A stretch of 64,000 nucleotides of DNA. Origin: Macrostomum lignano (taxonomy: Eukaryota). The stretch's first letter is position 1. Each line of letters opens with the position of its first letter. Both the position numbers and the translations under genes were made by a program. Positions 737 to 55,980 of this stretch are shown one piece after another. Where the stretch lies: contig NIVC01001573.1 of the NCBI GenBank assembly GCA_002269645.1, positions 1 through 64,000 on the forward strand, given 5' to 3'. The notes under the pieces are model-generated. The model was not told where the DNA came from. It searched no databases and saw only the letters and a list, made by a program, of their open reading frames with translations.

Positions 737-3700
737 TCGTGACTGCAGCCGGTGTAGTTGTACGCGAGCGGGCTGATCCCCGGTCATGCTGTAGTCGCAG
801 TAGCCCAGCTGCGATGCCTGAGTGGTGGCCTCGGAATAAAAGGCCGGGGCGGCCCGAAAATCCGAGGCGTTGAACATCATGGAGCAGCGGGTGTTGCGGT
901 CCGAGCACCGGCCGTTGAAGCAGTAGGCCTTGAGGGTCAGTGGTCAACTGCGGTTCTTGAGTCAAAGGCCCATGATTCAGAGGGTCACAGATTTGTTTAC
1001 TGATTAACCATAGGGTTAAGGAATGATTGAGTCAATGGGTCATTGGATCAACAGTGAGTCAATGGGTCAATGGGTCCAATGGGTCATTGGGTCATTGGGT
1101 CATGTGGGTCAATGGGTCATTGGTCAATGGGTCAGTGGGTCATTGAGTCATTTGGTCATTGGTCCCAATATCTCCTCACCTGTCCGTTGAGGCACTCTGA
1201 TCCGTCAATCATGAAGTCATCAAATTCCGGGCACCATTCGCTGGTCCCGTTACAGTACTCCTCAAGGTCGCAGGCTCGCTTCCTTGGCCGACATACGACG
1301 CCCTGCGACTTCAGGCTGCAGGTGGTGAGGTTGCAGCACTGGCCTGAGGCGCAGGCGGCCCCGCTGGCCAATTTGCAGGTGCTGGGGTTGCAACAGGTGT
1401 TGTTGCACCACTGCGGAGCGTGAGATGAGCTATGAAATTTCATCATACACATACCCCATTCCATTATCCGATATCCCATTCGTATAATATCCCTATCCTA
1501 CGATATCCCATTCCTATAATATCCCTATCCTACAATATCTCTATCCTACAATATCCCTATCCTACAATATCCCTAACTACTAAGCAACGGCAGATGGCGC
1601 GATTTTGGAGGTGAGGTGGGTGTCAACCCTCCTCGCCTCTCATTGGCTGGCGCCCCGATCACTAGGTGATCGATACCCGTATCGATATCGGCGCTCGGCG
1701 CGCGCGCGCCGCAGGCGCGTGGCGCCAAGCGCCGTCCAGCCGCAGGCGACCCTCCCAGCCACCGGCGACCCTCCCCAGCCGCAGGCGCACCTACCGATAT
1801 GTATGCCCACCCTACCGATATGTACCCGATATGTACACCCTCCCGAGCCGCAGGCGCACCCTCCCGAGCCGTAGGCGCCCATGCCGCAGACGCCCATGCC
1901 GCAGACGCCCATGCCGCAGACGCCCATGCCGCAGGCACCCCGAGTGTACACTCTACCGAGCCGCAGGCACCCCGAGTGTACACTCTACCGAGCCGCAGGC
2001 ACCCGAGTGTACACTCTACCGATATGTACACTCTACCACTCTCCCGATATGTAGTCAACGATATTAGGCTAGTGAAAACTACTTATAGTAGGTGAAATTG
2101 AGTATATTTACATAAAAATGTAGATAAAACATATTGGTAGGTGAATAATGACGCATATTGCATATTAAAATGTACATATTGGAGCATATGAGCAGCAAAA
2201 ACACACAATGTAGGTGTATGGGCAGAAATAGACAAAGCAGGTACTGTAGGCGCTACATAGGTGGAAATACACACAGCAGGTTTACAAAGTGTACTTTCGA
2301 TACATATCGGATTAATGTATAAAGCAGGTTTACAAGGCATGCATAAGGTGTAGTTGTATAATACAGGCACGCATGTATAATCAGATTATAGGCAAACGCC
2401 CAGGTGCAACAGACGCGTAAATAATGTCACACCGACTAAAGAGTAAATATTGTCTAACCCGCAGGTGCATAAAAATTTTAAACAAAAGCGGTTCGGGGAA
2501 ATCCCAAAAGGGGGTTCACGGCCTAATGACCCGATATACTTTCAACACAATTAAACCCACAAGTGGGCTAGAAAAATGGACGTATTTCGATTGCGCTATC
2601 AGTACGCTAATCAGCGCAGCAAGTTCATGTCAGGAGTTCTACTCCAAGAGGCGGACCGCTGGGCCACAAACCGCCCCGAGGGAATAGGTGTCAAATGGGA
2701 GTTTTAACACTTGAGGGGATCCCGCTCAATGTACAGTGGAGGTGCCAAATGAGTAAGGACCCCTAAGTACAGTGCGGGCGTAAAACCATTTTCATCCCCA
2801 CGAGTCAAGGGATCCCAAGTGGGCACATAGGGGAATCCCAGGCGTGCAAAGACAGATCCTTATCTTTCACTCACTCCCGAAAGCCATACGGGCGGCTAGC
2901 GGCCCCATACACCCTCTTAGTCATTACGCGCTGGAAAGTCTTGTCCATCTCGAGGGTCCGGATTGTACAGCTAGCCTTATCGCGCCTGAACTGGGCCTGG
3001 GGCAGGCGTACAGAGCCCCGTGGCGCAGAATTTCCTGCAGCTCGTCCTCGCGCTCGGAAATCTCGGGGGTGACTCTGATGCCCTTGCACTTGAGCACCGA
3101 GTACAGCGACCTGTCGGGCTTCTCCACCACGTACCGGTAGAGCTTGGGGCCTCCCGTGGTGAACTGTACCATGCGGCAGCCAGCAGGTACCTCGTCAGTC
3201 CACTGCCCCAAACTCGAACCGCCCGGAGGCTCGTACTCGCCCGGGAGCAGCGGTATACACCCTGGGAGAGGAGGAGAATAAAGTGTTAAGGGGAGAAAGA
3301 GAGACAGAGACAGTGAAAAAATTACTTACGAATCAGTATCGGCGTAAATGACTCGGGTTCCTAGCCCTCCAGAGCCTCGTAGAGTCGCAGCCGGGCGTGG
3401 GAGGTGGTGAAAACGCCAATAGGTACATTAGCGTACTTGAACGCCCGCTCGCCAGCACCGCCAAATCGGGGCTTGTACTCGAGCATCATGAAGCTCTCCC
3501 CAATTGGCTCGCACGACTTGACCTTGATCGAGGGGTCGGTCAGGCGCTGCAGCCACGCCTCGTAGCTGTCCACAATCTCTGTGGAGGTCAGGTCGTCGCG
3601 CTGGCAGAATTTGCCCCAGAGCCTGCAGGGAAAAATAAATTTTTTTTGTAAGTAGAAAAACACGGCCCCACTGCAAGTAGAAAAAACTTACGAGTTTAGA

Positions 3701-6700
3701 AAAATCTTGGCCACAAAGCGCAAGCCAGGATTCTCCTCCACCTTTTCCAGCCGGACGCCTTCGCGCTCGAAAAAGCTGGCCATGTAGGCAGCCTTGGCGT
3801 CCTCAGCCATCCCCGGCGAACCGCTAGACTCGGCTTTGAGCTTCAAAAAAGTGTTTACATAATCTGCAAACAGGCCCGTGCGAGTCTCGGTCCAATAGGC
3901 CAGGGCATGAACTGACTGCAGCTTGTAACCCAACTGCAGGGCCTTGTGGAGCTCTGGGGTCGACCACGTGCCGCGGAGCATTCTCTCAGCGTCAGTGTGT
4001 GTACACTCGCTGCTGCACTGGGTCTCCATGCAGACGCGGCAGAGGCCGAAAACCAACTTCTTGTTAATCTTGGCGGGCAGTAGCGGGATGTGGAGATTGG
4101 TTGGCGGCAGAATCGACACCTCGGCGATGCCAAAATACCGGGCCAGCTGCAGCTCATCCAGTAGATGAGGCTCGGGGTGGTGTACCGGGTGCCCGACCGG
4201 GTACTTGTCAAACTTGTTGACAGTCGGGTAGAGCGACACCTAGGGGATAAGGATAAGATAAACTCAAACGCATGTCAACTGTGTGTGTACAAGTGTACAA
4301 ACTTACCACATCCCGATAGCGCAGCTCTACAGTCTCGGTGGCCTCGGCGTGCGGGACAAAAGCCTCGGTACGGCCGCCAAACAGGGCATCCTCCAGGCGA
4401 ATAGGCTGCTGGACTGGCGCTCCCTCGTCCTGATAGTCGTGCTCCCACAGAACACGCACATTGTATGCAGTGGAGAGCAACCGGGTGAAGCGCTCAGTCT
4501 CCTCATAAATCGCCCGCATTGGCTGGTTCTTGAGCGGGTGCAGCACGTCGCCGTTGGGGAAGCACTTGGGACAGCCATGGAAGAAGCAGCCATGAAACTG
4601 CAGCACTGTCCTGGTCTCTGGGTCGAAGCCGTCGACCTTACGGCCCATGGCGAAAGCCTCGCCGCCCGAGTCCGCTGTCCGCAACCGGCCGCCAAACTCG
4701 GTTGCATTCAAATGTGCCAGCCAGCACCGCGCCTTGTGCGACTGTACATCGGACCGGCGGGAAATCACCCCAAGAGTGTTGGGCTCCATAAACTTGGTGG
4801 TGAATACCGACATGGCCAAGCCCGCAATGGTGTTGGATTGAACAAATGCGTCCAGTCCGCAAATGTCCTTAATCAGGCGGGCATATTTCAGGCAGCCTTC
4901 CCGCAAAATTAACGTGTCCTGCAGGCAATAGTCCAGGTACTCCTTATTAAAATTAAACACCTGTCCCTCCTGCTTGGCCAGCCAGTCGGCGATGGAGTCA
5001 TGCTGCTTATTTTCTTTCCTCCATACATATCAATTGAGCAGTAGGGACCGACGTACCCCCAATTTTGAGGCTGGTTAAACACGTGCGGGAAATCTCCTTT
5101 GGTCAGTTGGGTGCCCAAACCAAGCGCCTTTGGGAATTGCGCCAGACCAATAGGGATGAAATTGAGGCTGTCCTTGAAGGTGATCTTGTCGCACTTCATA
5201 TACATTAGGCGGCTGTTCTGGAAGATCACTTGCGGCTTCTTCTTGGCCAGTCCGTTGAGTAGGGCGCCGAGCAGGAGGAATGCGTCATACGCAGAGCCAT
5301 TGTGCGCAATAGCAATTGCCCCCTGCTTGAACACACTAGTCAGCCAGCAGTAAAATGCATCGATAGAGTGCGGCCCGACAGATACAAACTCTCGCATCCC
5401 ACAGGCACAGTCATTGTGCGAGACACAGCTCGTGAAATCCAGTGCCAAATCGCGTCCCGCAATGCAATTGGCTGAGCTGTGTAGTCCCCCGCACACGCTG
5501 CAGCGGGGCCTGGGGAAGAGTTTGGGACACGCCTCGCAGGAGGTGGCAGCCGTAACCAAGTGTACCCGGTGCTGCTTGCCAGAGTCCACGTACGTCTCGA
5601 AATCATAGTAAACATACGGGGCGCTAGACTCTTTGGCTTTGGGCGGGGTGACAAAGCACTCGTGGGTGGCAGTTTCGTCGTACTGCTTGCAGACTGGGCA
5701 CTTGGCATAACCACACTGATGCTCAGGGGGCTGGCCTACTTTTAGTTCTTCTAGATAGCCACACGTGCCGCAAACGTGGACCGAATCACAGCGCGATCTG
5801 CCGCCTTATTCTTGCGCTTGTGATTTTCTAGGCACTGAGCATTATAGCAATTTAGCCCGCAATCATGGCATCTTACATATGCGCGGTTTGCCTTACAGTT
5901 GGAGCCCGGAGTCTTGCATGTACTGCAGGCATCAGCGCACTTGTGCTCGGCGTTGGCGCAGTCGTAGGCCATCTCGCACTTGGGCAGTAGTGATCAGAGC
6001 CGAAAAACGCAGGCAGCTTGGTGACCACATTAAAGTGCTGCTCGACCAGGTGCAGGTGCAGAATCTCGGTGCCAGGCAGGTTGAAGATGCACCTGTTGGC
6101 CTCCTCTGCCGTACACGCGTACACCAAAATCGCGCCCGGATGCAGCCGGTTCAGGGCACGGATCGCTTCGGGCAGTGCATCCAACCCGAAAGGACCAGCC
6201 TGCGAGACGGTTTGAAGAGTCTGTGTGGAGGGTAAAATATTTCTTTTAGTATTCCCTGATACTGTGTAAAAAATCTTATCAGAAAATATATCTTTTAGTA
6301 TTCCACGATACTGTGTAAAAATTATTATCAGAAAATTTTAGTATTCCACGACTGTGTAAAAATTCTTATCAGAAAAATACTAGAAACTTACCGTGTAGAG
6401 GCCAGCTTCGATTTGTAGCTCAGCCACCAGCTTAGTCTGCGTGGGCGAATTGGCCTTGATTGTGTGCCACACCCGCTTGGTGATGGACTTGGCCACGAAT
6501 TGCAGGTAGGCGCAGGCCACGACCAGAGCGCGCAGCAGGCATCTCTTGTCCGAGTTGGTGATGCGGACATAGTGCTTGGAGAAGGCGTGCCGCTCTTCTA
6601 GATGCTTGTTCTCGAGAGCACATCCACCTCGAGGTACCCAGGCTTTTAGCAGACGGATAGAAAAGTTGCTCGACAGTACGCTTGCGTCTGACTGCACAAT

Positions 6701-9700
6701 CTTGTCAATGTGCTTAAACAACAATTCAGCCGTCATGCGGGCTGCACGCACCGGGGGAGTGTGGGCCGCTTTGAGCATATTGTCGCTCTCGAATTTCGCG
6801 GCCATAAAGTCATCACCAGCCAAATCTTGCTTGAAAACTTCGAGCATGTCAGCAAACACCTCCCGCAAATCTTCGGTGTTGGTAATATGCACCACATACT
6901 CGACACCCTTTGCCCTAAACTTGGGCAGGTCACGCTGATTATCCAGCCGGCCGTAAAACCTGCATGGGGGAATGGGGGAGTGTGAGTCAGCTAGGGTCTG
7001 TGTGGGAAATGGGGGGCGGATAACTCACCCGGTCCGGTAACAGATTCCGGCTGTGTTGGCGGGACAAACGCGTCTGAAAAAACACAAGGAGATAAAAAAC
7101 CAGAAGAATCTGTCATTTTCCTGGCCCCAGCGTGTTTCCCCGCCCTAGCCCCAGTAATTTCTTAACAGAGTTTACTCTGCTGTCCCCGCAGCAACTCTCT
7201 GCAATTTCTTATCTGCACCCCCGCTGCAGCCTGTCGCAGCAGTCTTTGTTTACTCACCCCTGCAACTCTCTGTCGCAGCAATTTGCACCTAGCTGCAGCC
7301 TGTCTGGGTAGCGCCCTATCTGCAGCCCCAGTCTGTCCCAGCAACTCTCTGCCCCACCTGGCTGTAACTTGTCTAGCCTGCCCCAACGATTCTGCAGCAA
7401 TTTCTTATCTGCCGCAGCACCCTAGCAACTGTCTGTTTTTGCAGCAATTTCTTATCAGCACACCCCTCCCTGTCTAGACAACCCCCCCACCCCAGTCTTT
7501 GTTTACTCACCCCTGCAACTCTCTGTCGCAGCAATTTGCACCCCAGCTGCAGCCTGTCTGGACAACACCCCCCTAGCAGCAATTTCTTATCAGCACACAC
7601 CCGGCTGAAACTTGTCTAGCCCTCCCCTGCAACTCTCTGTTACAGACCCTGCCGCAGCACCCCACCCTAGCAACTCCAGTCTAGACCCCTGCAGCTGTCG
7701 CAGCAGTCTTTGTTGTTTACTCTGCGGTCCCACAGACCCTGCAGCTGCTGCTGCTGCTCAGCCCCTACCCCCACCCTAGCAACTACAGTCTAGACAGAAA
7801 TTAATTAAAACTTACCATAAAGACGTTGCCTCTTGTCAGCCAGAAAGCAGTTGCTGCGGCGCTGCGTTTAGCCATTTTGCAAACAGAGAGCGTGAGAGAG
7901 CGGAGAGAGAAGGATTTATCTCTCTACCCTGGCTCTGGGGGTCTGTATATATACTAAAAAATCTGCTCAGCTCGCCTGTTATTGGATAAATCGCCAAAAA
8001 CCAACCAAAATCATCAAAAATCACCCCAAAATCATCACCCACCCCACCCTCCACCCGGGGTATATAAGGCGCTGCACGGCTGTCAGAGAGCTCTCTGCTG
8101 CTGCTGCTGCTAAATCATGTCTTCTATCTCTCTATACGAAAACTTTGTGGCGCGGAAGCCCACATTTGAAACTGAACACAACTTGATTGAAATTCGGCGT
8201 CTCTACACCAACGAGGCCGGAGTGTGGAAGGACGGCTTCCCTGCAATCTACTTGGCCGAGCCAGAGTGGAAGAAGCTCGAAGCTGCGCGCCCTGACCTGG
8301 AGGCTGCTGCCCGCCTTCACGTGAACAAGCGGGTCCTGTTGGGCAATTTCAAGGCAGTTGAAGCTTCGCGAGGGAGGATCCGTTTGCTGCGCAATTGGCT
8401 CAATCAGGACCCAAAGTTTAATTGGCGCTACACGATCGAATTCACGCCTGAACTGTGGCGCCGGATGTTTGCCGCCCGTTTGGACAAGCTCTTCAAGCCG
8501 GCACCTGAGGCACCCCCTCCAGCCAAGCGAGTCAAGACAGACACGCCTCCGGTAGCCGGGACTGAGGTGGATGTTCTTCAGCTCATGGGTCTCAAACCCT
8601 ACCAATCTCCACCCTGGGAAAATCTGTTTAACGAGGGTTGGGACTGCTAGTTTCCTATTGGTTCGCACCGCCTCACTCGATCCGTCTATATAATTAGTGT
8701 TTCCCCCTCTCCAGAGAGTCAAACCCTATCTCAGCTCTAATACTTTACTCTCTGTTGATTCTAGCATGTCCCGTCGAGCTCTATCCAACCTCTGGGATAA
8801 TAATCGCCCGACTGAAGAGTTAACCAGCCTCGACGGGGATATCCCTGAACACATAGTTCCCCTAGGCACTGAAAACAACGGAAGTGATAATTGGGAGGCT
8901 GATCAATATCTAGCTTGGGCTATGTCCTATGATAGCGACACCGAGTCTGAAGTTTTTGACCTCCCGCTGCTGGCTATCGGCGGGGTTGTGAACGGTGCCC
9001 CTGCTGCTACTGCCTCCGATTTGACTACCGCCTCAGCCGCCCTCTTTGACGTCTCTGTTGAGGAGCTGACCACAACCGGCCCTGCCTCTGCTGCGCCCGT
9101 CTCTGCTGCTGCCGCCTCTACTACGCCCGTCTCTGCTGCTGCTTCAACTACCTCCCACCGGGCCTCAATATCATCAGCCGCTACGCTCCTTCTCTTCGAC
9201 GACGAGGACGAGGATATGTCTGAGGAGATCGCCGTGGTTCGTGAGCGCTTTCCTCGCATTGTGGCCTCATTTTTCCGCGGGGACATTGACTGGCTGAGGT
9301 CTCGGCATCCTGGCGGGCTGCCCTCCCAAGCTACCTTTGTCAGAGCCTTTAATCGGGTTCTTGATACTTTGGTTGCGAGGGGTGCCGGCCTACGGGAGGT
9401 GTTGGAGGCTGAGACTCTGCACCAGGACTGGTTGATGGGGCGCAATTCGTATGCCCCCGACTCTGAGGCGTACCTGGCCGGTCCGGGAGCGCGGCCAACT
9501 GCGTGGGATGAGCCCGTCGCATGGCCCTCCAACTGGGAGGAGCACCTTTCGTTGGTGCGCTATACAGCGTCTCTACGTCTGTGGCGGCTGGAGGACGATT
9601 TAGATTTGGTAAGATATTACATTATATACACAACTCATCTAATCATATACCTTGCATATATTCTATCTACATTGACTGTTATAATTTCCACATTGCCAGT

Positions 9701-12700
9701 CATCCGACTACTGCTTCGAGAGCGTGGAGGAAGAGGCCGCGTACGAGACAGCCCTGAGGGAGCGTATGGAGATTGACTGATAAGGGTATTTCTCTTTGTA
9801 CGCGGTTTGGGGAACCCAACACTGTACACTGGGTAGGTTAGAATGTGCGCTAGCTGGGGGCCTCTATGTGTGTATACACGGGGGTTAAAAGACCAATTCT
9901 GATAGCTCGCTCCTAGGGAGGAAATTGGCAGAGGGGCCGGCCCAAAAAACTGAAATGGGCTGGCCCCGGGCTCGAGTCCACCCACCTAAAATATGGAGGT
10001 CATTACAACCTAATGACCCGAAATACTTTCAACGCAATTGTACCTATAAGAGGGTTAGGGCGGCGGCGGCGGTGGCGAAAACGGGCGGCTAAAACCTCCC
10101 TTTTGGGATTTCCCCGAACCGCTTTTGGTTAAAATTTATGCACCTGCGGGTTAGACAATATTTACTCTTTAGTCGGTGCGACATTATTTACGCGTCTGTT
10201 GCACCTGGGCGTTTGCCTATAATCTGATTATACATGCGTGCCTGTATTATACAACTACACCTTATGCATGCCTTGTAAACCTGCTTTATACATTAATCCG
10301 ATATGTATCGAAAGTACACTTTGTAAACCTGCTGTGTGTATTTCCACCTATGTAGCGCCTACAGTACCTGCTTTGTCTATTTCTGCCCATACACCTACAT
10401 TGTGTGTTTTTGCTGCTCATATGCTCCAATATGTACATTTTAATATGCAATATGCGTCATTATTCACCTACCAATATGTTTTATCTACATTTTTATGTAA
10501 ATATACTCAATTTCACCTACTATAAGTAGTTTTCACTAGCCTAATATCGTTGACTACATATCGGGAGAGTGGTAGAGTGTACATATCGGTAGAGTGTACA
10601 CTCGGGGTGCCTGCGGCTCGGTAGAGTGTACACTCGGGGTGCCTGCGGCTCGGTAGAGTGTACACTCGGGGTGCCTGCGGCATGGGCGTCTGCGGCATGG
10701 GCGTCTGCGGCATGGGCGTCTGCGGCATGGGCGCCTACGGCTCGGGAGGGTGCGCCTGCGGCTCGGGAGGGTGTACATATCGGGGTACATATCGGTAGGG
10801 TGGGCATACATATCGGTAGGTGCGCCTGCGGCTGGGGAGGGTCGCCGGTGGCTGGGGAGGGTCGCCTGCGGCTGGACGGCGCTTGGCGCCACGCGCCTGC
10901 GGCGCGCGCGCGCCGAGCGCCGATATCGATACGGGTATCGATCACCTAGTGATCGGGGCGCCAGCCAATGAGAGGCGAGGAGGGTTGACACCCACCTCAC
11001 CTCCAAAATCGCGCCATCTGCCGTTGCTTAGTAGTTCCCTATCCTACAATATCCCTATCCTACAATATCTTTATCCTACAATATCCCAATCCTACAATAT
11101 CCCTATCCTACAATATCCCTATCCTACAATATCCCTATCCTACAATATCTTTATCCTACAACATCTCTATCCTACAATATCCCTATCCTACAATATCCCT
11201 ATCCTACAGTATCCCTACCCTACAATATCCCTACCTACCCTTTAATATTCCTACCCGACAATATAACATACCTTACCCTACAATATCCTTATACACCCTG
11301 ATTCCCACCCGCTGCACCTGAGGCGGTCCGCAGTCGCAGTCCTCCCCGGGCTCGACAATCCGGTTGCCGCACGCGCTCCTGGTGGCGGCCAGGTTCGCCA
11401 CCGAAGGCGGGTCGGACATGCAGTATCCGAGCCCGTTGTCCACGCTGAAGTCCTGGTAGCGGAACACGGAGCAGTTGGAGAATCGCATCGGGTTAATCCT
11501 GGGATTTGATTGGACAGGCGACACGCGAGTTAAATCTGCGTTCGTGTACTGAATCGTGTGCTGGGTCAAGGGGTGCTGGGTCAAAGGAGTGCTGGGTCAA
11601 GGGGTGCTGGGTCAAGGGGTTCTGGGTCAAAAGAGTGCTGGGTCAAGGGGTGCTGGGTCAAGAGTTGCTGGGTCAAGGGGTGCTGGGTCAAGGAGTGCTG
11701 GGTCAAGGGTCGCTGTGTCAAGGGGTGCTGGGTCAAGGGGTGCTGGGTCAAGGGGTGCTGGGTCAAGGGGTGCTGGGTCAAGGGTCGCTAGGTCAATAAT
11801 CAAAGATAAAAATGTTGGGTCAAGGGGTCGCTGGGTCAATAATCCTAGATAAAGGTGCTGGTTCAATAATCCTAGATGAAGATGCTGGGTCAAGGGGTCG
11901 CTAGGTCAATAATCCTAGATGAAGATGCTGGGTCAAGGGGTCGCTAGGTCAAGGGGTCGCTGGATCAATAATCCTAGATGAAGATGCTGGGTCAAGGGGT
12001 CGCTAGGTCAAGGGGTCGCTGGATCAATAATCCTAGATGAAGATGCTGGGTCAAGGGGCTGCTGGGTCAATAATCCTAGATGAAGATGCTGGGTCAAGGG
12101 GCTGCTGGGTCAATAATCCTAGATGAAGATGCTGGGTCAAGGGGCTGCTGGGTCAATAATCCTAGATGAAGATGCTGGGTCAGGATGTTGAATCGCAGGG
12201 CTACTCATGACTGCGGCTCACTCGGTGCCCACAGCGGCCATGATGCAGCCCTGTCTGTCCGGGCAGTGGCAGCCTCTTTCGTCCTCGTCGTGGTTCATGC
12301 CGAGGTTGTGCCCGAGTTCGTGGGCCACCGTGATGGCCACCCCGATTGCGTTGGCGTCCCGGTCCTGCGAGGAGGGAGTTTGGCCGTTTTGATTTCGGTT
12401 TTCAAAATATTTAACAGTTTCATGAGATATCTATGGGATTTGTCTTATATCTATGAGACTTGCCTATATGCATTGAGACTCGGGAAGCTATGAGATTCGC
12501 CTAAAAACGAGAATGTCTCACCGAATTGACTCCGCCACCGAAAGCGGAGCTGCACAGCTTGCCCAGGTGCGCCAAGCCGACATCCGAGCCGGTCATTTTC
12601 AGTCCGCTGAAGTTTTTTAGCGTTTAAACAAATTTTCTTGATGAAGGCTGGGTGTCATCTTTAGGATACAATTGACAGAATGGGACAGTATTGAGCATTT

Positions 12701-20421: not shown

Positions 20422-21039
20422 TCAATCAGTGACGATGTCATCAAGCGGCTGGTCAGAGTCGCCGGTGGGCACGGAGTCCACCAGCTGGTCGCTGAAGGCG
20501 ATGGCCACGGCGGCGCAGGCGGGGTTGGCGGCGCGGGCCCTGGCCAGGTAGCGGTCATAGTAGCCCATGCCCCGGCCCAGCCGCGCCCCGTCAGCTTGGC
20601 AGAATGCCAGGCCTGGTACTATAATGAGATCCAGCCCGCCGTTCTCCAGGCCCTCCTCCCTGGCGGGCGACCCGGGTTCGAGTCCCGGCTGCCGGATGCC
20701 CCACTTGGTGACTGGAAGCGAGGCCAGGTCCTCTCGGCCGGACACGGCCAGCATCTCCATGCCGCCGCCGCGGCTGTACCTCGGCACGAACAGCCGGCGG
20801 CCGCTATTGAAAATGTCGGCCACAATGCCGGCCGTGTCGACCTCCTCCGGCATGCTCAGGTAGACGCTGATCCGCTTAGCCGAGCGGTACCGATCGCTGG
20901 CCAGAAGCTTCTGGACAATGATGCCAGATTTTGAGCTGCGCTGCTCAGCTGACAGGGCGGCCAGGCGCGACTTGATGAGGCTGCGAAGCTGCGATTTGGC
21001 AGCTTTCACTGCGGCGGCGGCTGTTGGGCTGGAGGACAT
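20422..21039 (-). CDS. MTHFS: 5-formyltetrahydrofolate cyclo-ligase
   Basis: Intronless 205-aa ORF with KSQLR, SVYLSMPEEVDT, DLIIVPGLAF and RLGRGMGYYD motifs. Confidence 0.95.
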   Translation of the reverse strand: MSSSPTAAAAVKAAKSQLRSLIKSRLAALSAEQRSSKSGIIVQKLLASDRYRSAKRISVYLSMPEEVDTAGIVADIFNSGRRLFVPRYSRGGGMEMLAVSGREDLASLPVTKWGIRQPGLEPGSPAREEGLENGGLDLIIVPGLAFCQADGARLGRGMGYYDRYLARARAANPACAAVAIAFSDQLVDSVPTGDSDQPLDDIVTD

Positions 21040-21164
21040 TGGTTGGCTGCGGAGGGGTTGCGCAACTCTAGTGGAAATACCGCGGGCTGCCCGGAAGATT
21101 TTGAAGGGTGAGAATAAAAAAATTCTGCAGTTTCCTAAATACCTGCCTCTGAGAAGGCGCCACT

Positions 21165-22470
21165 GTCTCTTAGGTGAGCACCCCTTGTCTCTTAGGCGAG
21201 CCCCACTTGTCTCTTAGGTGAGGCTCAACTGTCTCTTAGGTGAGAGCGTCTCTTAGGTGAGGCTCAACTGTCTCTTAGGTGAGCCTCAACTGTCTCTTAA
21301 GTGAGCACCCCTTGTTTCTTAGGTGAGCCCCCTTGTTTCTTAGGTGAGCAACCCTTGTTTCTTAGGTGAGCCCCCTTGTTTCTTAGGTGAGCACCCCTTG
21401 TTTCTTAGGTGAGCAACCCTTGTTTCTTAGGTGAGCAACCCTTGTTTTTTAGGTGAGCACCCCTTGTTTCTTAGGTGAGCACCCTTGTTTCTTAGGTGAG
21501 CAACCCTTGTTTCTTAGGTGAGCCCCCTTGTTTCTTAGGTGAGCACCCCTTGTTTCTTAGGTGAGCAACCCTTGTTTCTTAGGTGAGCAACCCTTGTTTT
21601 TTAGGTGAGCACCCCTTGTTTCTTAGGTGAGCACCCTTGTTTCTTAGGTGAGCAACCCTGTCTCATAGGTGAGCCTCAACTGTCTCTTAGGTGAGCACCC
21701 TTGTTTCTTAGGTGAGCAACCGTCTCATAGGTGAGCCTCAACTGTCTTTTAGGTGAGCACCCTTGTTTCTTAGGTGAGCACCCCTTGTTTCTTAGGTGAG
21801 CACCCCTTGTTTCTTAGGTGAGCAACCCTTTTTTCTTAGGTGAGCACCCCTTGTTTCTTAGGTGAGCACCCCTGTCTCATAGGTGAGCCTCAACTGTCTC
21901 TTAGGTGAGCACCCCTTGTTTCTTAGGTGAGCCCCCTTGTTTCTTAGGTGAGCACCCCTTGTTTCTTAGGTGAGCAACCCTTGTTTTTTAGGTGAGCACC
22001 CCTTGTTTCTTAGGTGAGCACCCTTGTTTCTTAGGTGAGCAACCCTTGTTTCTTAGGTGAGCCCCCTTGTTTCTTAGGTGAGCACCCCTTGTTTCTTAGG
22101 TGAGCAACCCTTGTTTTTTAGGTGAGCACCCTTGTTTCTTAGGTGAGCAACCCTGTCTCATAGGTGAGCCTCAACTGTCTCTTAGGTGAGCACCCTTGTT
22201 TCTTAGGTGAGCAACCGTCTCATAGGTGAGCCTCAACTGTCTTTTAGGTGAGCACCCTTGTTTCTTAGGTGAGCACCCCTTGTTTCTTAGGTGAGCACCC
22301 CTTGTTTCTTAGGTGAGCAACCCTTTTTTCTTAGGTGAGCACCCCTTGTTTCTTAGGTGAGCACCCCTGTCTCATAGGTGAGCCTCAACTGTCTCTTAGG
22401 TGAGCACCCCTTGTTTCTTAGGTGAGCACCCCTGTCTCATAGGTGAGCCTCAACTGTCTCTTAGGTGAGC
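21165..22470. repeat. About 22-bp minisatellite (CCCCTTGTTTCTTAGGTGAGCA), about 60 copies
   Basis: Tandem copies upstream of MTHFS. Confidence 0.95.
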
Positions 22471-24059: not shown

Positions 24060-27000
24060 TCACAGAGCCGCCAGTGCGGCATCGCAGAAGCTGTACAGGA
24101 AGTCGTGCAGCCAGCGGCCCCGATCCTCGCACATGCCGGCCAGCCGGCTGTCAGGCGTCAGAACGTCGGCCAGTTCAACGCCGAGGCGGCCGCTGGCCAG
24201 CAGGCGGGCCAGACAGAGCCTGGCTAGCTCGGAGTCCCTGAACACGCTGGCAGCGGTTAGCAGGCGACTCAACGGCGACTCAACAGTGGATGAAGAAGAC
24301 GCCGGAGATGCTGAGAAATAAACAAACGATGCCCGCATCAGCACTGCCTCGGCAGCCGACGGCAAGTCCAGCAGGAACCGGCGCCTGCAGGCGACAAGTC
24401 GCAGATAGTCGGCGAGCCGACGGAACGGCCCCGACTGGAGGTGCAGACAGGCGGAGCCCGAGTCCGCGCAGCCGTAGGCCAGGTGCAGCACGGACTCAAC
24501 AGTAGGCGGGTCAACATCGCGCAGCTGGATCCTGGTCGAGCCGGACTCGGCAAAGCTGCCAGCCAGGAGGGCTCGGAAATAATCCGACCGGGCGGTGAGG
24601 GCGGCCCGGTGACAGGACAGGCCGCTGGGCAGCGGCGGGTCCGCATCACCGTCCAGCGATGACGGGAAAGTCAGCAACAGGTCGGCTGGCTCGGAGGCGA
24701 TTCGAGCGCCGAACTGGCAGGTCGGGGCGCTCAGCTTGTCCTGTTGAATCTGGCGCTGCAAGCTGCCCCGCTGGAGTAGAAGAGTCCAGGCAATGTCGGC
24801 GGCGGAGCAGCTGGTGCTGCTGCTCAGGCGCAGGCTGGAGCTGACCACATCGGACAGTCGCTGGCCGGGGGGACCCAGCCGGCTCAGGCACAGGTGCAGC
24901 AGGCGCCTCAGGCCCAGCCCAGCCAGTTCAGCGTCTGGCGACTCGGCATTGTCAGCAGCGGCGTCTTCGGGTTCGTCGGATCGCCGCAGCAGACGGAATA
25001 GCCGGGCTACGAAGCCTGTGGCCCGGTGAGCTCGGCAGATTGTCGATGACTCAACCGTTGCTATGGTGACGGTGGGGTCAGTCCGATGGTCGCTCGGCCG
25101 GCCCGGCCTGAGCAGTAGACAGGGCAGGCTGAGGGCGCACAGGCGGGCGAGCCCGGGCCGCCGGCCAGAGGAGGCGAACCTGGACAGCGAGCGCAGGGTC
25201 TCCAGACCGAAGTGACTGCCAGCAGTGATGGCCGCTCTGTCCAGCACCTGCGGTTTTATTGCCAAATATCATATTATCTGTGCAATTTTTATCTAATCTC
25301 CGGCTTTCCAATCTAATCTCTGGCCTTCCAATCCAATTTCTGACGTTGTTATCTAATCTCTAGCTGTCTCAAACAATCTATGCCATTCTTATTTAATCTC
25401 TGGCCGACTCATCCTATGTCTGGCCGTCCCATCCAATCTCTGGCCGTCTCATCTAATCTCTGGCTGTCTTATCCAATCTCTGGCTGGCTCATCTGCCCTT
25501 CTTATCTAATCTCTGGCCGTATGATCCAATCTCTGGCCGTCTAATCTAATCTCTGGCTTGCTAATCCAATCTCTAGCTCTCTCATTCAATCTCTGCTCTT
25601 CTTATCTAATATATGGCCATCCGATCCAATCTCTGGCCGTCCCGTCTCATCCAATCTCTAGCAGTCTCATTCAATCTCTGCCCTTCTTATCTTATTTCTG
25701 GCCGTCTCATCCAATCTCTGGCTGCCTCATCCAATCTCTGGCTGTCTCATCCAATATCTGGCCGTCTCATTAATATATGGCTGTCTCATCCAATATCTGG
25801 CCGTCTCATTAATATATGGCTGTCTCATCCAATATCTGGCCGTCTCATTAATATATGGCTGTCTCATCCAATATCTGGCCGTCTCATTAATATATGGCTG
25901 TCTCATCCAATCTCGACTGCCCTTCTCATTCAATCTCTGCCCTTCTTATCTCTAATTTCTCTTCTGTCCTTCTCTCTTGACCTTGACCTCCAATTCTACA
26001 AGTAACCGAACTTGCTAACCCTCACCTGATCGAGCTCGTAGCAGCTGCCCGAGCACCTTGCGGACGCTGTCTCCGCCCAGAGGCTACCGCTAGTAGCGCC
26101 AGCAGCCCTGCAGTCGGGGTCGAACCGCCTGGCCAAGGCCAGCACGCATCCGCCAGAGATGAGCGGCTCCAGCGCGAATTGGCAGCCGGCCAGCTGCCTC
26201 ATGAGCAGCCAGCAGCGCAGGTGAGGCCTGGCAATCAGGTAGTCAACAAGCAGGCGCAGCGTGGCCGCGGGTTCCAGCAATGCCGGCCGCAGGCGAGAGT
26301 CGCTGGCCAGCTGGGTCAGGCAATGCAGAGCCGCGCCTTCCACATCGCCGAGAGTCACCGGCTCGCCGTCGGGCTCAGCTGCTTCATCGGCCTCATCAAC
26401 GCCAAGCGCCTCCTCTTCGGGCACCACCTCTGAGAATAGCGAGGCAGCGTCGTCGTCATAAAAGTCGTCGTCGTCATTGTCGTCCCTGACGACGCCGTGG
26501 AAGTCTTCAGGATCATCAGCAAAATCATCGTCGCAGTCTGAGGAGGCTGACGAAGCCGCTGAAGAAGAATCGCCGGACGAAGTGGCCGAGGAGGAGCCGG
26601 AAGACGCAGACGAGGCAGCGGGCGAATACGGCGGAGTCGGGTAGATGGGACTTGCACAGGTAGAGATTGCTGTTGTTGCTTTCGGCGCTGCTGCAGATTT
26701 TGTTGCAGATTTTTCAGCGGCAGTTTTTGAGGTGGCCAAGTTCGACGCCGAGGACAGACTCTCGGCCTCGGCTTGTGAGCTCGCTGTAGATGTCGAAGCA
26801 GCAGCTTCGTCGGTGAGGGTGTCGACCAGGGCTGAGGCGAGGCCCCAGCGGGCCAGCTCGGCCAGGCCCCGCCTGTCGTAGGCAAAGCAGGCGATGCACC
26901 GCATGGCCGTCAGGCGGACCGCCTGCCAGCTGAAGCGACAGCGCAGCGCTACGATCAGCACTCGATGACAGTCGGACTCGGCCGGGAGTCGAACTCGCGA

Positions 27001-42085: not shown

Positions 42086-44986
42086 CAGGGGCGGGCAAAC
42101 TTTTTAGAGAGTGGGCCAAATAATACTTTCGTTGAATAGCCGCGGGCCGGAGCTTAATAACGAGGCAACTTTCTTGGTAGATAGAAATACAGTTTAGTTT
42201 ATTTGCTTATCAAGCTTTTAATAGTAGGTTTCATTACAATTAGTGAAATACATGTATCATTGAATATGCAGATATTTGCTTTATATAAAGTTGAATTAAC
42301 AAATGAGAAGTTTAAGTAAAAATGACGTTTTAAAAATTACGTAACTGCTTTTACATCCGATGGCAATAACATCAGCGCTGATGAAAAAGTTATTAGTTAC
42401 TTGCTATAGATGATACAGTTGATATTTAATGAAGGAAAATAGTACTAGCAATAGAAAAAATGGACAATAAAAAGTGACATTGACAGGGAATTATAATAGG
42501 AAAGATACAAAAAGAAATACATTGACAAAATGCTCGAACAATGATGGGCAGTGATAGCATGCCGTTAGAGATATTAGTGACAAATTTTGGTTGACAGACA
42601 TGCCCAATCTACAGTCTGTTAGCAGAAATTCAGTCATTCGAACTTAATGAGATGGGTGGTATTGTCTGCCCTGAAGAAGTGCTTCAAAATCCGGCTTGAT
42701 AGACGAAGTAGACAGCAGAAGGATATCATTAAGATGGCGGTCTGAAATCTGGGAACGAAGGCGAGATTTGGTGAAGCTCATTTTGGAAAACAGCTGTTCG
42801 CAGCAATAGGTGCTCCCAAACATGGCCATAATATGTTGAACATGGGCGATGTAGTTTGGAAAGTTGTTGGATGGGAGAACAAGGTCCCAAAAGAAGGCTA
42901 GAGGGGAGGAAGTGCGGAACTTTGCCTTCAGTCCATCGTTGCACTGCAGCTCAACCAACTCCATCTGCAGGGCAGCTGGGGCATCATCCACCAAGCAGTC
43001 AAAGGGAGCAGTGAGGAGCTTGAAGTCCACAGCCAGGCGTCTGACTCCTGCAAAGCGGGAGGCAAACTCCTGCAGAGAAGCCACAACCCCTGCGCAAGTG
43101 ACCAGGTCCACGTCATCTGGGGCACAGGCAGCAAGACGAGGAAAGTGCACAAATGGACCAGCAGTCAGCTGAGCCTCCCACAAGCGTAGCTTGACCTCGA
43201 ATGCAGTGATCTCAGCGTGCATGTCCGTCACAAGAATTTCTTGGCCTTGAAGTTTTATATTGAGGGCATTCAGGTGTGCAGTGACATCAGTCAGCAGGGC
43301 CAGGCGAGCAAGCCATTTTGGGTCAGAAAAGCAGTCCGCATGGGGTAGATTCTTCTGGCGCAAAAATGTGACAATCTCCTGCTGTAGGTCATACACAAGA
43401 AAGCATGGCCCCACGGCTCAGCCAGCGGACTTCGCAGAAGTAGAGCAGGTCTCCATATTGCGTATTCACCTCGTCCACTAGAGTCTGGAACTGGCGATGG
43501 TTGAGGCTGCTAGAGAGGATGGAGTTGACAACTTTCACTACAATCGACATGACATCAGCAAGTTTGGCAGACTTGGCGCACAGGGCCTCCTGATGAATAA
43601 TGCAATGCATCTTTTGTATTGGCTGGGTATGGCCGGCAGCCTCATAGTGATGCACTAGGAGTGATGCGGCGCCTTTCCTCTCTCCAGTCATTGCTGGGGC
43701 ATCATCGGTTGTCATACACACAAGGCGAGAAAGATCAAGTGAGTGCTGCTCAACACACTGAAGCACAGCATCAAAGATGTCCTTGCCAGTGGTGGTGCCA
43801 TGCAGTGGGACAAGCTGCAGAAACTCCTCGTGAATCTTGAGGTCAAAAGTGACTCCTCGGATAAAAATGGCCAGCTGGGCTATATCTTTCATGTCAGTGC
43901 TCTCGTCAAGAGCTAGGGAGAAGGCAACTAGATCAGAGCAGCAGGTCTTCAGCAAGTCGTGCACATTGTCCGACATCTCCTCAATGCGCCGTCGAACAGT
44001 ACGGGATGAGAGGCTCACGCTCTCAAAAGCAGAATGCTGTTCTGGACAGACAGAGTTCACCACAGTCACAAGGCACTCCTTGATAAAGTCCCTATCCGAG
44101 AAAGGCTTCATCTGGCAAGCTAGTAGATGGGAGACCTCGTAGCTTGCACGAGTCACCTTGTCGGCCTCAGTAGTCTGCTTGCGGAAGAGCAAAGTCGTCT
44201 TCTGCAGGTTGCCAGACAGCTTTGTGATAGCTTCTTTCTTCTTATCAGCAGGCATTGAAGCATAGGCTGATGTTTGGTGATTAGTTTCCCAGTGGCGACG
44301 CACATTGAATTCTTTAAGGACGGCCACAATCTTAAAACAGATAAGACACTGCGCTTGGCCAAAGTGCTCAACAAAAAAGTACTTCTCCTGCCAATCAGCT
44401 TTAAAGGCCCGACACTCGAGATCTACTTTTCTCTTTTTAGCAGGTTGAGGTGTAGTAGACATGATTAGATAGATAGATGGAAGGCACACTGTGACACTGA
44501 GGGAAATTTTATTTTAGGGGAACTTTTAGTTAATAGGCACATAAATAAACAGATTCGGGGAGAGGTGGTCTACCAACAGCAGGCTGCAGCCTGCTAAACA
44601 GTGCAGGGGCCAAATCAACTCTTTTCTCTCTGGATAATATAACAATGTCTAAGGCTTGATAGGAAGACTGCTAGAAAGGGGAAGAGAACTTATGGACGTA
44701 CGCCACGTGCCCAGAGGGACAGACAGCCAAATTGAGCTTAAGGTTGGGCACAGCCCATACCTTCGAATCTTAGAATCTGACAATATACTATATAAAGGGA
44801 GAGGGGAATAAGTCTTTGTTTGCTTATTAGAGTCTAGACTCCTTAGTAGAGCCTTAGAATCTGGAAAATCTAGTGCCAGACTTATGCGGGCCGGATTTTA
44901 ATGCAAATGAGAAGCTATGTGGCGGGCCAGAAAATAAAGCCTCGCGGGCCGGATCTGGCCCGCGGGCCGGAGTTTGCCTGCCCTAG
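42086..44986 (-). mobile_element. hAT DNA transposon (Buster/SPIN/Charlie group)
   Basis: TIRs CAGGGGCGGGCAAAC and (reverse complement) CTAGGGCAGGCAAAC match at 12/15. 8-bp TSD AGCTAAGA at 42078-42085 and 44987-44994 with central TA. Confidence 0.9.
42644..44462 (-). pseudogene. hAT transposase, GTF2IRD2/SPIN-like, one frameshift near 43400
   Basis: MSTTPQPAKKRKVDLECRAF, BED-like CLIC...RRHWETNH, ALDES, TTDDAPAM, HCIIHQE, WLSRG, CEQLFS. Confidence 0.88.
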
Positions 44987-47727: not shown

Positions 47728-48314
47728 AATATAAGCTGTAATGCTATATTGCCTATGGTTACCCAGCAACAGTCAAAAGTTCCACTTGTACAAATCACGC
47801 ACAGTTAGAGAGAAAACTTCTCAAGTTCACATTAATAATGCACAGTAAAAGGCGAATAAAAATATCTTTGCTGGTTGGGCGGAACTCTTGACTTTTGTTG
47901 GGTATATATGGCTTTTGAGGTAAAATGAGTTTGCTGACCCCTGGCTTTGTGTAATTTGTGTTATCTTTATCTCTAGCTCCACTGCAGCAGTCAGACAACC
48001 CTTGTCCTTAATACTCTTTTTTTATTTGGAGCTAAACTAGAGGCTTTTAAATTTTATGCTCGTAAAGTGCCTTTAAGCGAAACTTAAATTGTTAAAATCT
48101 CTTTGGTGTGGTGTGACTAATTGTATATGTATGTAGGGATGTCGACCCAGGGGTAGGGGAGTGTTCCCCTGGGAATTGGACTTGAGACCTGGAAAGAAAA
48201 AATGTGTAAAGTGCATTCGTAACTTAATTTTTGCCTTTTAGATAATAAACTGTTTCACATAAAGCTGATTGAAACTATGTTTATACAAGATTTTATTTTT
48301 TTCTACCACTGAAG

Positions 48315-51300
48315 ATTCTGCAAGCGTCACCGGAAATTTGCAACTGCGCAAGATGCCGCAGAAGCCGATGGCGCCAACCAGTACCAGGTGGACCCGGCGT
48401 CCATTGCAACCGATGACAACGGCCTGTCAGCTGCTCTGGTCGATGCAGCCACTGGCAAACGGTTGAGCCTTAGACTAGCTCGCGTGGCAACCGTTACTGG
48501 GCGAACTTTTCGTCTGAAAATCAACGAATTTGCCGACGAAGCCAAGAGGCCCAGGTTCGAACCCGCGCCAGGCGACTCGCTGGTTGCCGACGTGGCCGAG
48601 GCGCCCGTTGCCATTGACAACAAGCAGCTGGACGGGAATCTGTACGTGCTCGAAGCCAAGGATGGCGCCAAGAGCGACGCTGCAAAGGTGAGGCGTGTGC
48701 GCTTTATGAGCATAGTGCCATAATAATAATTGATTACATCTGCCCCAGCTCGGTCAGATGTGCAACCAACAGTCTCAGCTATCAGCCTCCGCATCTGAAG
48801 GCTGCATACGGCTGTTCAGTCCAATTACTATCGGGGTGGGGGTCGCCACACATACCCTCAGTTACCCCAGCTAATACTTGGCACCCGTTTTACAGCTGGG
48901 GTGAACTGAAGCAATGCAGAGTTGAGTGTCTTGTTTAAGGATATAAATGTGTTCCAGTAGGGTCAGGAATCGAACCCCTGACCTTTAAGTCGTGAGTCCG
49001 ACAAACTAAATCAATCTTAGTTTAAGCGTATCATGTTGCAGAATTGCTTACTACTAAGTAAGTAGTGTATAGACGGGCTATTTTGATTGTTCGAATCCCG
49101 TCGACCCCCCCCCCTCACAGGCCAAAGCTGTTCTCCAGCTCAAACCGTTCCGAGTCGACTGCCTACTGAACGATCGCCCCCTGATCAGCGTGAACTCCAA
49201 GAGCCGCCTGATGTGGGAGTTCCATCAGCAGAAACCCGACGACTCAGCCGACAATTCCGACGGTCTCTACGACGAAGAGTTCAAAGGCCACCGCGATGCC
49301 AAGCCGCACGGCTCCTCGTCTGTCGGCATGGACGTGGCTTTCCCGGGCTTCGAGCACGTGTACGGTATCCCGGAGCACGCGGACAGCCTGGCCCTGCGCA
49401 GCACAGCCGGCGGCGAGCCCTACCGGCTGTACAACCTGGACGTGTTCGAGTACGAGCTCAACAACCCCATGGCTCTGTACGGCAGCGTGCCGCTGGTGTA
49501 CGCGCACTCGGCTAACAACACGGCCGGGGCCTTCTGGCACAACCCGTCCGAGACCTGGGTTGACGTTCAATCGTCCAAGTCTAGCGGCGGCGGCCTGTCC
49601 GCTCTGCTGACCAGCTTCGTCAAGTCCGCCTCGCCGTCCGAGGCCCTGACCGAGACGCACTGGATGAGCGAGTCCGGCGTCATCGACCTGTTCCTGTTGC
49701 TAAGCGACACTCCGCTGGGCGCGTTCCGGCAGTACGCCAGCCTGACTGGCACCACGCCGCTGCCGCCGATCTTCTCCATCGCTTATCACCAGTGCCGCTG
49801 GAATTATAACGATGAGACCGATGTGCTTGAGGTGAGGCTCATTGACGCACTTGGCGCCAGCACTTCATGTGTTGAACTGTTAGCGGTTCAGTTTAATCGA
49901 TTTGTTAAAGAGATTTTGATATTTATATACCGTCGGGACTTTAAATAGACCACACTGATGCTGAATAAACCCGATTAGCGCCTTATCTATAGACCCCATT
50001 GACGCCTTATCTATAGACCCCATTGGCGCCTTATCCGACTATTTTTGGTACCTTATCTAAAGACTAAATTGACGCCTAATCTATAGACAATACTGATACC
50101 AAAACAGATTTACCTTCAGACAACAATCAATACCAATATCATGTCTGCCCCTATACCCTTTCCAGGTTGATCGCAATTTCGACGAAAATGACATCCCCTA
50201 TGACGTCATCTGGCTAGACATCGAGCACACGGACGGGAAGCGCTATTTCACCTGGGACTCGAACAAGTTCCCCAATCCCCAAGGCATGCTGGACAAGCTC
50301 AACGCCAAGGGCCGTCAGCTGGTGACCGTGGTTGATCCGCATATTAAACGTGACGATAACTGGGCGCTGTACCAGCGGGTTCGCGACGGCGACATCGCCG
50401 TGAAGAGTCACAAGGATGACGGACTGTACGATGGCTGGTGCTGGCCGGGCTCGTCTGTGTGGCCGGATTTCATTGACCCGGCAGTCAGGAAGTGAGTCAG
50501 TCTTTAGACATTCTGAGTAATCCCCCCCCCCCGAGCCCTTGCCCATCTGAGCAATACCCATTCAGGTTTTTGGCATTCTGAGTAATTCCCCCCGAGCCCT
50601 GTCCCATCTGAGAAATACCCATTCAGATTTTAGACATTCTGAGTAATTCCCCCCGAGCCCTTGCCCATCTGAGAAATACCCATTCAGATTTTAGACATTC
50701 TGAGTAATTCCCCCCGAGCCCTTGCCCATCTGAGAAATACCCATTCAGCTTTTAGACATTCTGAGTAATTCCCCGTGAGCCCTTGCCCAACTGAGAAATA
50801 CCCCTTGAGTATATAGACATTCTGAGAAACCCCCCCCCCGAGCCCTTGCCCATCTGAGCAATACCCATTCAGCTTTTAGGCATTCTGAGTAATCCGCCCG
50901 AGCTTTTGCCCATCCGAGCAATACCCATTCACTTGCACTCGCTTCAACAACAGGTGGTGGGCCAACGAATTCAAGGACTACGTAGCCGCCTACACCTGGA
51001 ACGACATGGGCGAGCCGTCCGTGTTCAACGGGCCTGAGGTGACGATGCACAAGGACGCCAAGCATCACAACGGCTGGGAGCACAGGGAGGTGCACAATCT
51101 GTACGGTGCGCTCGTCCACCAGGCCTCCTGGGACGGCCAGCTGGTCAAGTCGCCGCAGCGGCGGCCGTTCGTGCTGACCAGGGCGTTCTTTGCTGGCTCG
51201 CAGCGGACTGCGGCTGTGTGGACTGGCGACAATGCGGCTAACTGGGATCACCTCAAGGTGCGCCTGCGTGACCTGTCTGCGTGTCTGCCACTGGCTGTCT

Positions 51301-51476
51301 GCCTGCCTTTTTGTCTGTTTAGCAGCTGTCTCTGTGTCCCTGTCTGTCTGTTTTCGACACTAATTGAGACGGACAGTCATAACGACAGACATAATGTGTC
51401 TCTCTTTGTGCCTGTCTTAGCATCTGTCTGTCTGTCTTTCTGTCTCTCTGTCTGTCTGGGTGTCTGTCTGTCTTAG

Positions 51477-51533
<57 letters not shown>

Positions 51534-51568
51534 GCCTGCCTGTCTTAATGTCTGTCTGTCTGCCTCAG

Positions 51569-51603
<35 letters not shown>

Positions 51604-55700: not shown

Positions 55701-55980
55701 CCTGTGTTTGCTACCTCTTCTATTTTAATCATTGGTTCTTCCGTGCCTCATGGTTTCATAAGCATTGTATTTTTTGTCTCTGCTAGAGCCCTAAGTCTTG
55801 GTTAAAGTAGGTTATCCGTCTTGTTTTTAGTCAGGTACAGCAATTGTTTGAGTTAAAAAAGCCAGTTTATATCTACGACTTTTATCTCTTGATGAACAGG
55901 GGACCGATTGAAACCGCATAGTTGCTAAGCGCTGGTAGGCAGGCCAACTGCAGCCTTAGAAGATCGGCTACTCCGCCATC

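Follow-up and report, generated by a model that had tools for sequence, protein, structure and literature searches.

How a virus-like element comes to carry a polymerase gene broken up by spliced introns is the question raised by a Polinton-derived element of the flatworm Macrostomum lignano, which occupies positions 1576-11035 (~9.5 kb) of the 64,000-nucleotide stretch analysed here (contig NIVC01001573.1, positions 1 to 64,000; hereafter the window). The element encodes a DNA polymerase (pPolB), a PC4-like protein (open reading frame 2, ORF2) and an orphan protein (ORF3), and the UniRef proteins closest to it are named Macrostomum lignano DNA polymerases. In our judgement it is probably an old, host-adapted and self-copying Polinton-derived satellite, possessing a spliced six-intron polymerase and relying on the integrase of a helper Polinton for insertion.

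The boundaries of the element are set by terminal inverted repeats (TIRs) and by a target-site duplication (TSD) of 6 bp:

1570..1575 (unstranded): left copy of the TSD, a 6-mer repeated identically at 11036-11041
1576..2516 (+): left TIR, starting ACTACT; 941 nt against 943 nt, 99.2% identity to the right TIR
10093..11035 (-): right TIR, ending AGTAGT and pairing with the left TIR
11036..11041 (unstranded): right copy of the TSD, matching the left 6-mer

All 11 contigs for which both ends were fetched possess a 6-bp TSD, at 10 distinct sites, and the same length is found at a further copy (C1158) and at two copies of a second, sister family that this genome contains, hereafter family B. A 4-bp TSD, considered as a reading of the window copy, is ruled out by the 6 bp of the other copies. 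The element, hereafter family A, is matched on at least 36 contigs, whose flanking sequences differ; this count is a lower bound for the genome search, in a genome reported to be partly duplicated (PMC5730564). With the window copy differing from 19 other copies by 0.2-2.2%, the element has spread recently, leaving Polinton-type TSDs. In the window, it was inserted into a tandem repeat within an intron of a host ADAM-like gene; ADAM-like exons lie on both sides, and chimeric UniRef models fuse reprolysin/disintegrin Pfams with PF03175. The termini of families A and B (1576-1581 and 11030-11035 in the window; L081:2321) read ACTAC...GTAGT, the reverse complement of those of all four complete host Polinton families seen, yet A and B make the same 6-bp TSD.

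The first-pass annotation of this locus proposed seven introns, six in pPolB and one in the orphan gene, and concluded that the element depends on nuclear splicing. All seven are real, having GT-AG ends and being skipped by contigs of RNA type, and the dependence on splicing is thereby demonstrated. The lengths originally claimed (742, 69, 67, 69, 68 and 91 nt) are likewise correct save for that of intron 3, which is 171 nt and not 192 nt:

7074..7815 (-): pPolB intron 1, 742 nt, repeat-rich, phase 1; joint in X4, X6, X10 and X11, shorter side 28 nt
6960..7028 (-): pPolB intron 2, 69 nt, phase 1; offset joint at 6950-7027, 8 letters intervening, in X1, X4, X10, X11 and X14
6221..6391 (-): pPolB intron 3, 171 nt, tandem-repeat rich; 171-nt joint in X1, X6 and X10
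4240..4306 (-): pPolB intron 4, 67 nt, interrupting motif A (DV|VSLYP) in phase 0; joint in X1, X4, X10, X11 and X14
3623..3691 (-): pPolB intron 5, 69 nt, splitting the motif-B Ser codon (KxxLNS) in phase 2; joint in X1, X4, X6 and X10
3262..3329 (-): pPolB intron 6, 68 nt, splitting the motif-C Ser codon (DTDS) in phase 2; spliced out in X1 record 1 and X14 record 9
9609..9699 (+): ORF3 intron, 91 nt, phase 0; joint in X4, X6, X11 and X14; unspliced in X1 record 4

These joints come from a comparison of eight public runs over 2550-10000, six of them of RNA type (X1, X4, X6, X10, X11 and X14); none is recorded as RNA, the label being the guess of the tool, backed by the joints themselves. Introns 1, 3, 4, 5 and 7 are each skipped in three to five RNA-type runs, the joint of intron 2 is offset due to a nearby 1-nt indel, and for intron 6 the skipping is visible in piece tables alone, those of X1 and X14. 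Use of the 192-nt acceptor of intron 3 was not seen among the RNA joints, which use the 171-nt form. No intron joint occurs among the 15 joints listed, of 25, for the unlabelled, DNA-like runs X16 and X19, whose contigs run into introns. Since none of the 20 best genomic copies is without an intron that it covers, the skipping joints represent RNA splicing. The catalytic motifs A, B and C each hold one intron (introns 4, 5 and 6), an arrangement for which a post hoc estimate, placing three of six introns in 22-40 motif codons of ~1,250, gives a chance of 1e-4 to 6e-4. Inteins of B-family DNA polymerases also sit in these motifs, the motif-B site (N|S) lying within two bases of intron 5; unlike inteins, the inserts described here are RNA-spliced GT-AG introns without coding content.

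The spliced genes are laid out as follows, pPolB and ORF2 being arranged head-to-head:

7816..7875 (-): coding portion of pPolB exon 1, from the ATG at 7875, with a homologous start in family B
7029..7073 (-): pPolB exon 2, 45 nt; a 51-nt homologous exon in family B
6392..6959 (-): pPolB exon 3, N-terminal region; 53% identity to family B
4307..6220 (-): pPolB exon 4, exonuclease region; PF03175 matches; small indels break the frame in the window copy
3692..4239 (-): pPolB exon 5, from SLYP of motif A as far as motif B; PF03175 E 4.9e-13
3330..3622 (-): pPolB exon 6; weak PF03175 match (E 0.083) and alignment to outside pPolB
2871..3261 (-): pPolB exon 7, C-terminus, stop at 2871-2873; tblastn to family B and outside pPolB; RNA contig X1 record 1
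8117..8650 (+): ORF2, PC4-like; 31% over 114 amino acids (E 5e-11) to a host Polinton ORF
8766..9608 (+): ORF3 exon 1, orphan; 307 amino acids when spliced, homologues in M. lignano only, frame running into exon 2
9700..9780 (+): ORF3 exon 2 to the stop, continuing the ORF3 frame

A Pfam search matched the PF03175 catalytic core on exons 4 and 5 and weakly on exon 6. Exon 3, whose alignment to outside pPolBs is weak, contains a CLLRA motif that may correspond to the vOTU Cys; a terminal-protein/vOTU role of the kind described in the literature is putative. Small indels break the pPolB frame of the window copy at ~11 places (approximately 3018, 3245, 3260, 3365, 5012, 5803, 5983, 6110, 6138, 6950 and 7844); these are probably assembly errors, because most of the 19 other loci compared are without them. 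The spliced frame is open over 1,276 codons in three of the 17 copies that cover all exons. Both pPolB and ORF3 are under purifying selection, with a ratio of non-synonymous to synonymous polymorphism (pN/pS) of 0.10 for pPolB (20 copies; 134 synonymous and 43 non-synonymous variants) and of 0.08 for ORF3; the variants of ORF2 (3 and 3) are too few for such an estimate. The host Polinton ORF that ORF2 resembles matches Pfam PC4 at E 8.5e-5, below the curated cut-off, and the atlas score of 0.86 that relates ORF2 to PC4 clusters is a lead only. ORF3 has no credible Pfam match, its homologues are confined to M. lignano and bear inconsistent UniRef names, its atlas match to DUF3516 (0.84) is likewise a lead only, and its single-sequence model reaches a pLDDT of 35.6.

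Set against the Polintons/Mavericks (animal adintoviruses, with Alpha-type PF03175 PolB), the element is alike in its PF03175 pPolB, in its 6-bp TSD and in the length of its TIRs (941 nt, inside the Polinton range of 100-1500 bp), and it shares a PC4-like gene with the complete host Polinton families C114 and C393. It differs in size (9.5 kb against 13-25 kb) and in having no detected rve integrase, ATPase, protease or capsid. The 10 ORF pieces of the element that were scanned gave no Pfam match to an rve integrase, and none of 47 ORFs from three complete host Polintons, the C114 integrase included, gave a tblastn match in family A or B; the capsid, packaging ATPase and protease module also gave none, and three genes fill the space between the TIRs. 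Its ends, ACTACT...AGTAGT where Polintons have AGTAGT...ACTACT, do not match the canonical motif 5'-(AG)3 or (AGT)2. Intact vertebrate Mavericks, with (AG)3 or (AGT)2 at their ends, are reported to be intronless (PMC8097293), in contrast to the seven spliced introns found here. With no detected integrase or capsid, a deviant end motif and an interrupted core gene, the element thus acts like a Polinton and yet is no autonomous member of the group. Although no capsid gene was detected, packaging in trans is conceivable.

How such an element might sustain itself can be sketched from Polinton biology, in which self-replication is protein-primed by an N-terminal terminal-protein domain (PMC11161782). 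RNA polymerase II would act from a bidirectional promoter in the space separating pPolB from the PC4-like gene. The spliced pPolB would then prime on the (ACT)n ends, the PC4-like protein binding single-stranded DNA during replication, and the copy would be inserted by an rve integrase borrowed from full-length Polintons of the same genome. Polintons whose polymerase ORFs are long and uninterrupted are present in the host genome as well, and the Polinton rve integrase has 116 genome matches, many of them open and identical.

The history of the introns is recorded in family B, which is 53-77% identical to family A by exon, has ends ACTACG...CGTAGT and 6-bp TSDs, and possesses no homologue of ORF2 or ORF3 and no integrase detectable by tblastn with the 47 helper ORFs. 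Its six pPolB introns occupy the same positions and phases as those of family A. In one copy they measure 998, 79, 61, 81, 74 and 78 nt, and its short introns span 60-87 nt across up to 14 loci; similarity to the corresponding family A introns is no better than shuffles in 5/5 pairs. The GC content at third codon positions (GC3) is 0.73 and 0.67 for families A and B, as in host dyneins (0.65-0.73), whereas the intronless Polinton polymerases of the host have 0.26-0.51. Shared positions without remaining intron similarity, together with host-like GC3, support the long residence that was suggested for the element at first. Gain of the introns probably predates the split between families A and B and took place over a long residence in this flatworm lineage or a related one. 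Introners are present in dinoflagellate Polinton-like viruses (PMC11957031), which resemble the present case in carrying intron-type inserts in a Polinton-like element; the introns described here differ in being old, conserved in position between families and not mutual copies. An introner origin is rejected, 13/15 within-family and 5/5 between-family pairs being no better than shuffles; the two within-family pairs above shuffles both involve the AT-rich intron 3.

A tight size class of 67-69 bp had been remarked upon, with the suggestion that it could point to origin in another host unless it was simply the modal size of host introns. The tightness is partly a property of the window copy: across 19-20 copies, introns 2, 4, 5 and 6 measure 69-71, 67-85, 67-83 and 68-73 nt (67-85 nt overall), and intron 3 measures 119-296 nt. 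That the class lies below the host short-intron mode does hold. Host introns were predicted by homology, with a splice-score filter, in loci of three gene families (myosin, kinesin and dynein), where 54 rows collapsed to 26 and 78 rows minus duplicate haplotypes gave 71, a total of 97. Those of 130 nt or less (n=52) have a median of 87.5 nt and a range of 72-130 nt plus one doubtful call of 34 nt, the only one of the 52 at or below 71 nt; 67-69 bp is not the modal size in this sample. Typical short introns are 70, 67, 70, 70 and 91 nt in family A and 74, 61, 81, 74 and 78 nt in family B, and by the three-gene-family sample the size class of the element is at or below the lower edge of the host's. 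Host introns under 72 nt may exist, since an ab initio scan of 60 stretches of 10 kb, itself weak (31 events against ~18 expected from five control motifs), produced candidates of 46, 53, 54, 67, 73 and 74 nt. The donor GTRAGT is used by 11/13 element introns against 26/72 host dynein introns. Such features suggest that selection favours a compact template with efficiently spliced introns, which would keep these introns short and consensus-like and would account for them better than foreign inheritance.

Relatives outside M. lignano extend the picture for one of the three motifs; introns in the outside proteins are predicted from the protein ends. The proteins P0084 (JGI) and P0085 (Logan) run from the SLYP boundary to KIFLNS, exactly the span of exon 5, and group with families A and B (SH-aLRT 91 in a quick tree of 52 rows). 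P0134, the sister of these two, continues across both exon-5 boundaries, as do 150 of the 165 outside proteins that cover exon 5 and most of 38 metagenome loci, among which the DNA of P0084 is not found. Of 181 outside motif-B proteins, 26 end one residue past LN (LNR or LNS), while other offsets up to 100 residues have at most two protein ends each; the 26 collapse to 7-8 groups at 55-65% identity. In a metagenome contig (L331:955-1050), the motif-B Trp codon, two codons past intron 5, is interrupted by a GT-AG intron of 96 nt, and P0161 and P0182 end at the same Trp. No protein ends at motif C were found among the outside proteins, viral contigs yielded no relatives, and 0/7 pattern matches were pPolB.

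The clearest outside case is a cluster of coral Polintons (Porites lobata; P0012, P0016 and members), ~47-48% identical to the element over exon 5, in which an intron would occupy the same motif-B Ser codon as intron 5. The NCBI Porites lobata model reads through motif B. ENA members long enough to include the motif terminate at it, and in two downstream ORFs SFWGK is immediately preceded by an opening F/C/L-rich stretch of unrelated sequence; this pattern matches the expectation for a phase-2 intron in that codon. The cluster carries both LNR and LNS ends. The coral sequences differ from the element in reading through motifs A and C, and in that most of their ends imply an AG|GT split where the element has TC|GT. 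It is likely, judging by these protein ends, that the motif-B intron is shared with, or recurrent in, other Polinton clades including that of the coral. The proviso that other Maverick clades might already share these introns would thus hold in part, for the position in motif B. In a FastTree of 168 rows, the motif-B end state needs 8 changes where shuffles need a mean of 13.6 and a minimum of 11; with weak deep support, repeated gain and an old intron with losses are inseparable. It is tempting, if doubtful, to go further and regard the motif-B Ser codon as a hotspot of repeated spliceosomal intron gain across animals (~7-8 lineages in the sample), at which a site-specific cutter makes the break and selects the intron as immunity; the flatworm satellite, with introns in three motifs, would then be an extreme, intron-armoured Polinton parasite.

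Several observations weigh against the interpretation of the element as a resident, helper-dependent satellite. The main loose end is the orientation of its termini: all four complete host Polinton families with ends found have AGTAGT...ACTACT, the reverse of its own. Some contigs of RNA type keep intron 1 and the ORF3 intron unspliced. Finally, in a test that leaves out intron 1 of both families and intron 3 of family A, element introns are shorter than those of the host (p 0.004 for A, 0.002 for B, jointly 1e-4), which foreign origin also predicts.

The reversed termini bear most directly on the proposal that the element has an integrase of its own, unrecognised in ORF3, or an unfound autonomous partner with ACTAC ends. 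ORF3 is maintained by selection, and the genome searches, which scored best candidates only, would leave room for such a partner; with end motifs reversed, a helper Polinton was not identified, no search aimed at an ACTAC-ended helper having been made. However, the 6-bp TSD is the Polinton signature (PMC8097293) and ORF3 resembles no Pfam family credibly. ORF3 is unlikely to be the integrase, because family B lacks it and yet resembles family A in the kind of its ends and in TSD length, and we hold the proposal as a whole to be unlikely. Recent arrival from another host with ~68-nt introns would agree with element introns below the host mode and with outside relatives that share the exon-5 boundaries. 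Nevertheless, one genome holds two divergent families with all positions common, intron sizes vary among copies, and GC3 fits host genes rather than the host's other Polintons. With intron sizes drifting over 60-87 nt between two resident families, origin elsewhere, as first suggested, is unsupported and in our estimate rather improbable. Domestication of the polymerase as a host gene, with introns reflecting that role, would suit its splicing, host-like codon use and purifying selection, but is largely refuted by the dispersal of copies over at least 36 contigs in differing surroundings, by their fresh TSDs and by TIRs of 99% identity, and has hardly any claim to consideration.

Among the literature listings and passages covered, neither this element nor a spliced polymerase of an animal Polinton is described, and no modal intron size is given for the host. 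A survey of Polintons in protists used prokaryotic gene callers and assumed introns to be absent (PMC10120064), and another found none (PMC8547959); further literature was used for comparison (10.1101/2023.08.22.554363, PMC8502044, PMC11071296, PMC12220804, PMC5718144, PMC6431247, PMC9469890). As surveys assume no introns and filter on integrase and capsid, spliced or helper-dependent lineages are missed, and 26/181 outside pPolB entries are cut off at a single intron site. An active, spliced, polymerase-only satellite that lives beside intronless helpers in a laboratory flatworm opens to test the path from virus-like element to nuclear transposon, and the same system offers a test of parallel intron gain at the same nucleotide.

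Individual copies show further variation. Just inside the terminus (1585-1602; copies L021-L050), a block of ~12-18 nt has several variants between copies, but the two ends of a single copy usually match, which homogenisation of the ends by replication would produce; the ends of copy C491 differ. One family A copy (L097/L098, G000:C1158:30380-40909) has ORF3 and part of ORF2 duplicated in inverted orientation, which makes 2.6-kb inverted repeats and truncates the pPolB C-terminus; a short way downstream come ORFs that belong to a different Polinton family. A 5.6-kb A-type derivative (L049/L050, G000:C1944) lies inside the integrase gene of a C114-type Polinton, an insertion seen at 2/30 ends tested and at one site. 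In family B, one copy of ~18 kb (L083/L084, G000:C1485) has ~3-kb inverted ends holding 250-bp tandem repeats. Elsewhere in the genome, a Polinton family with a 1,478-amino-acid polymerase ORF is represented at L087 and L329 (G000:C2285 and C4619), the C2285 copy adjoining a dUTPase gene, and Polinton integrase genes are paired ~10 kb apart in inverted orientation at G000:C2301 and C3189.

The remainder of the window holds ORFs that we take to resemble a hAT/SPIN-type transposase (42647-44513, -) and host genes presumed from resemblance to encode a 5-formyltetrahydrofolate cyclo-ligase (20422-21213), a BTB protein (24060-25268), glucosidase II alpha (48313-53043) and a two-pore potassium channel (55960-58050).

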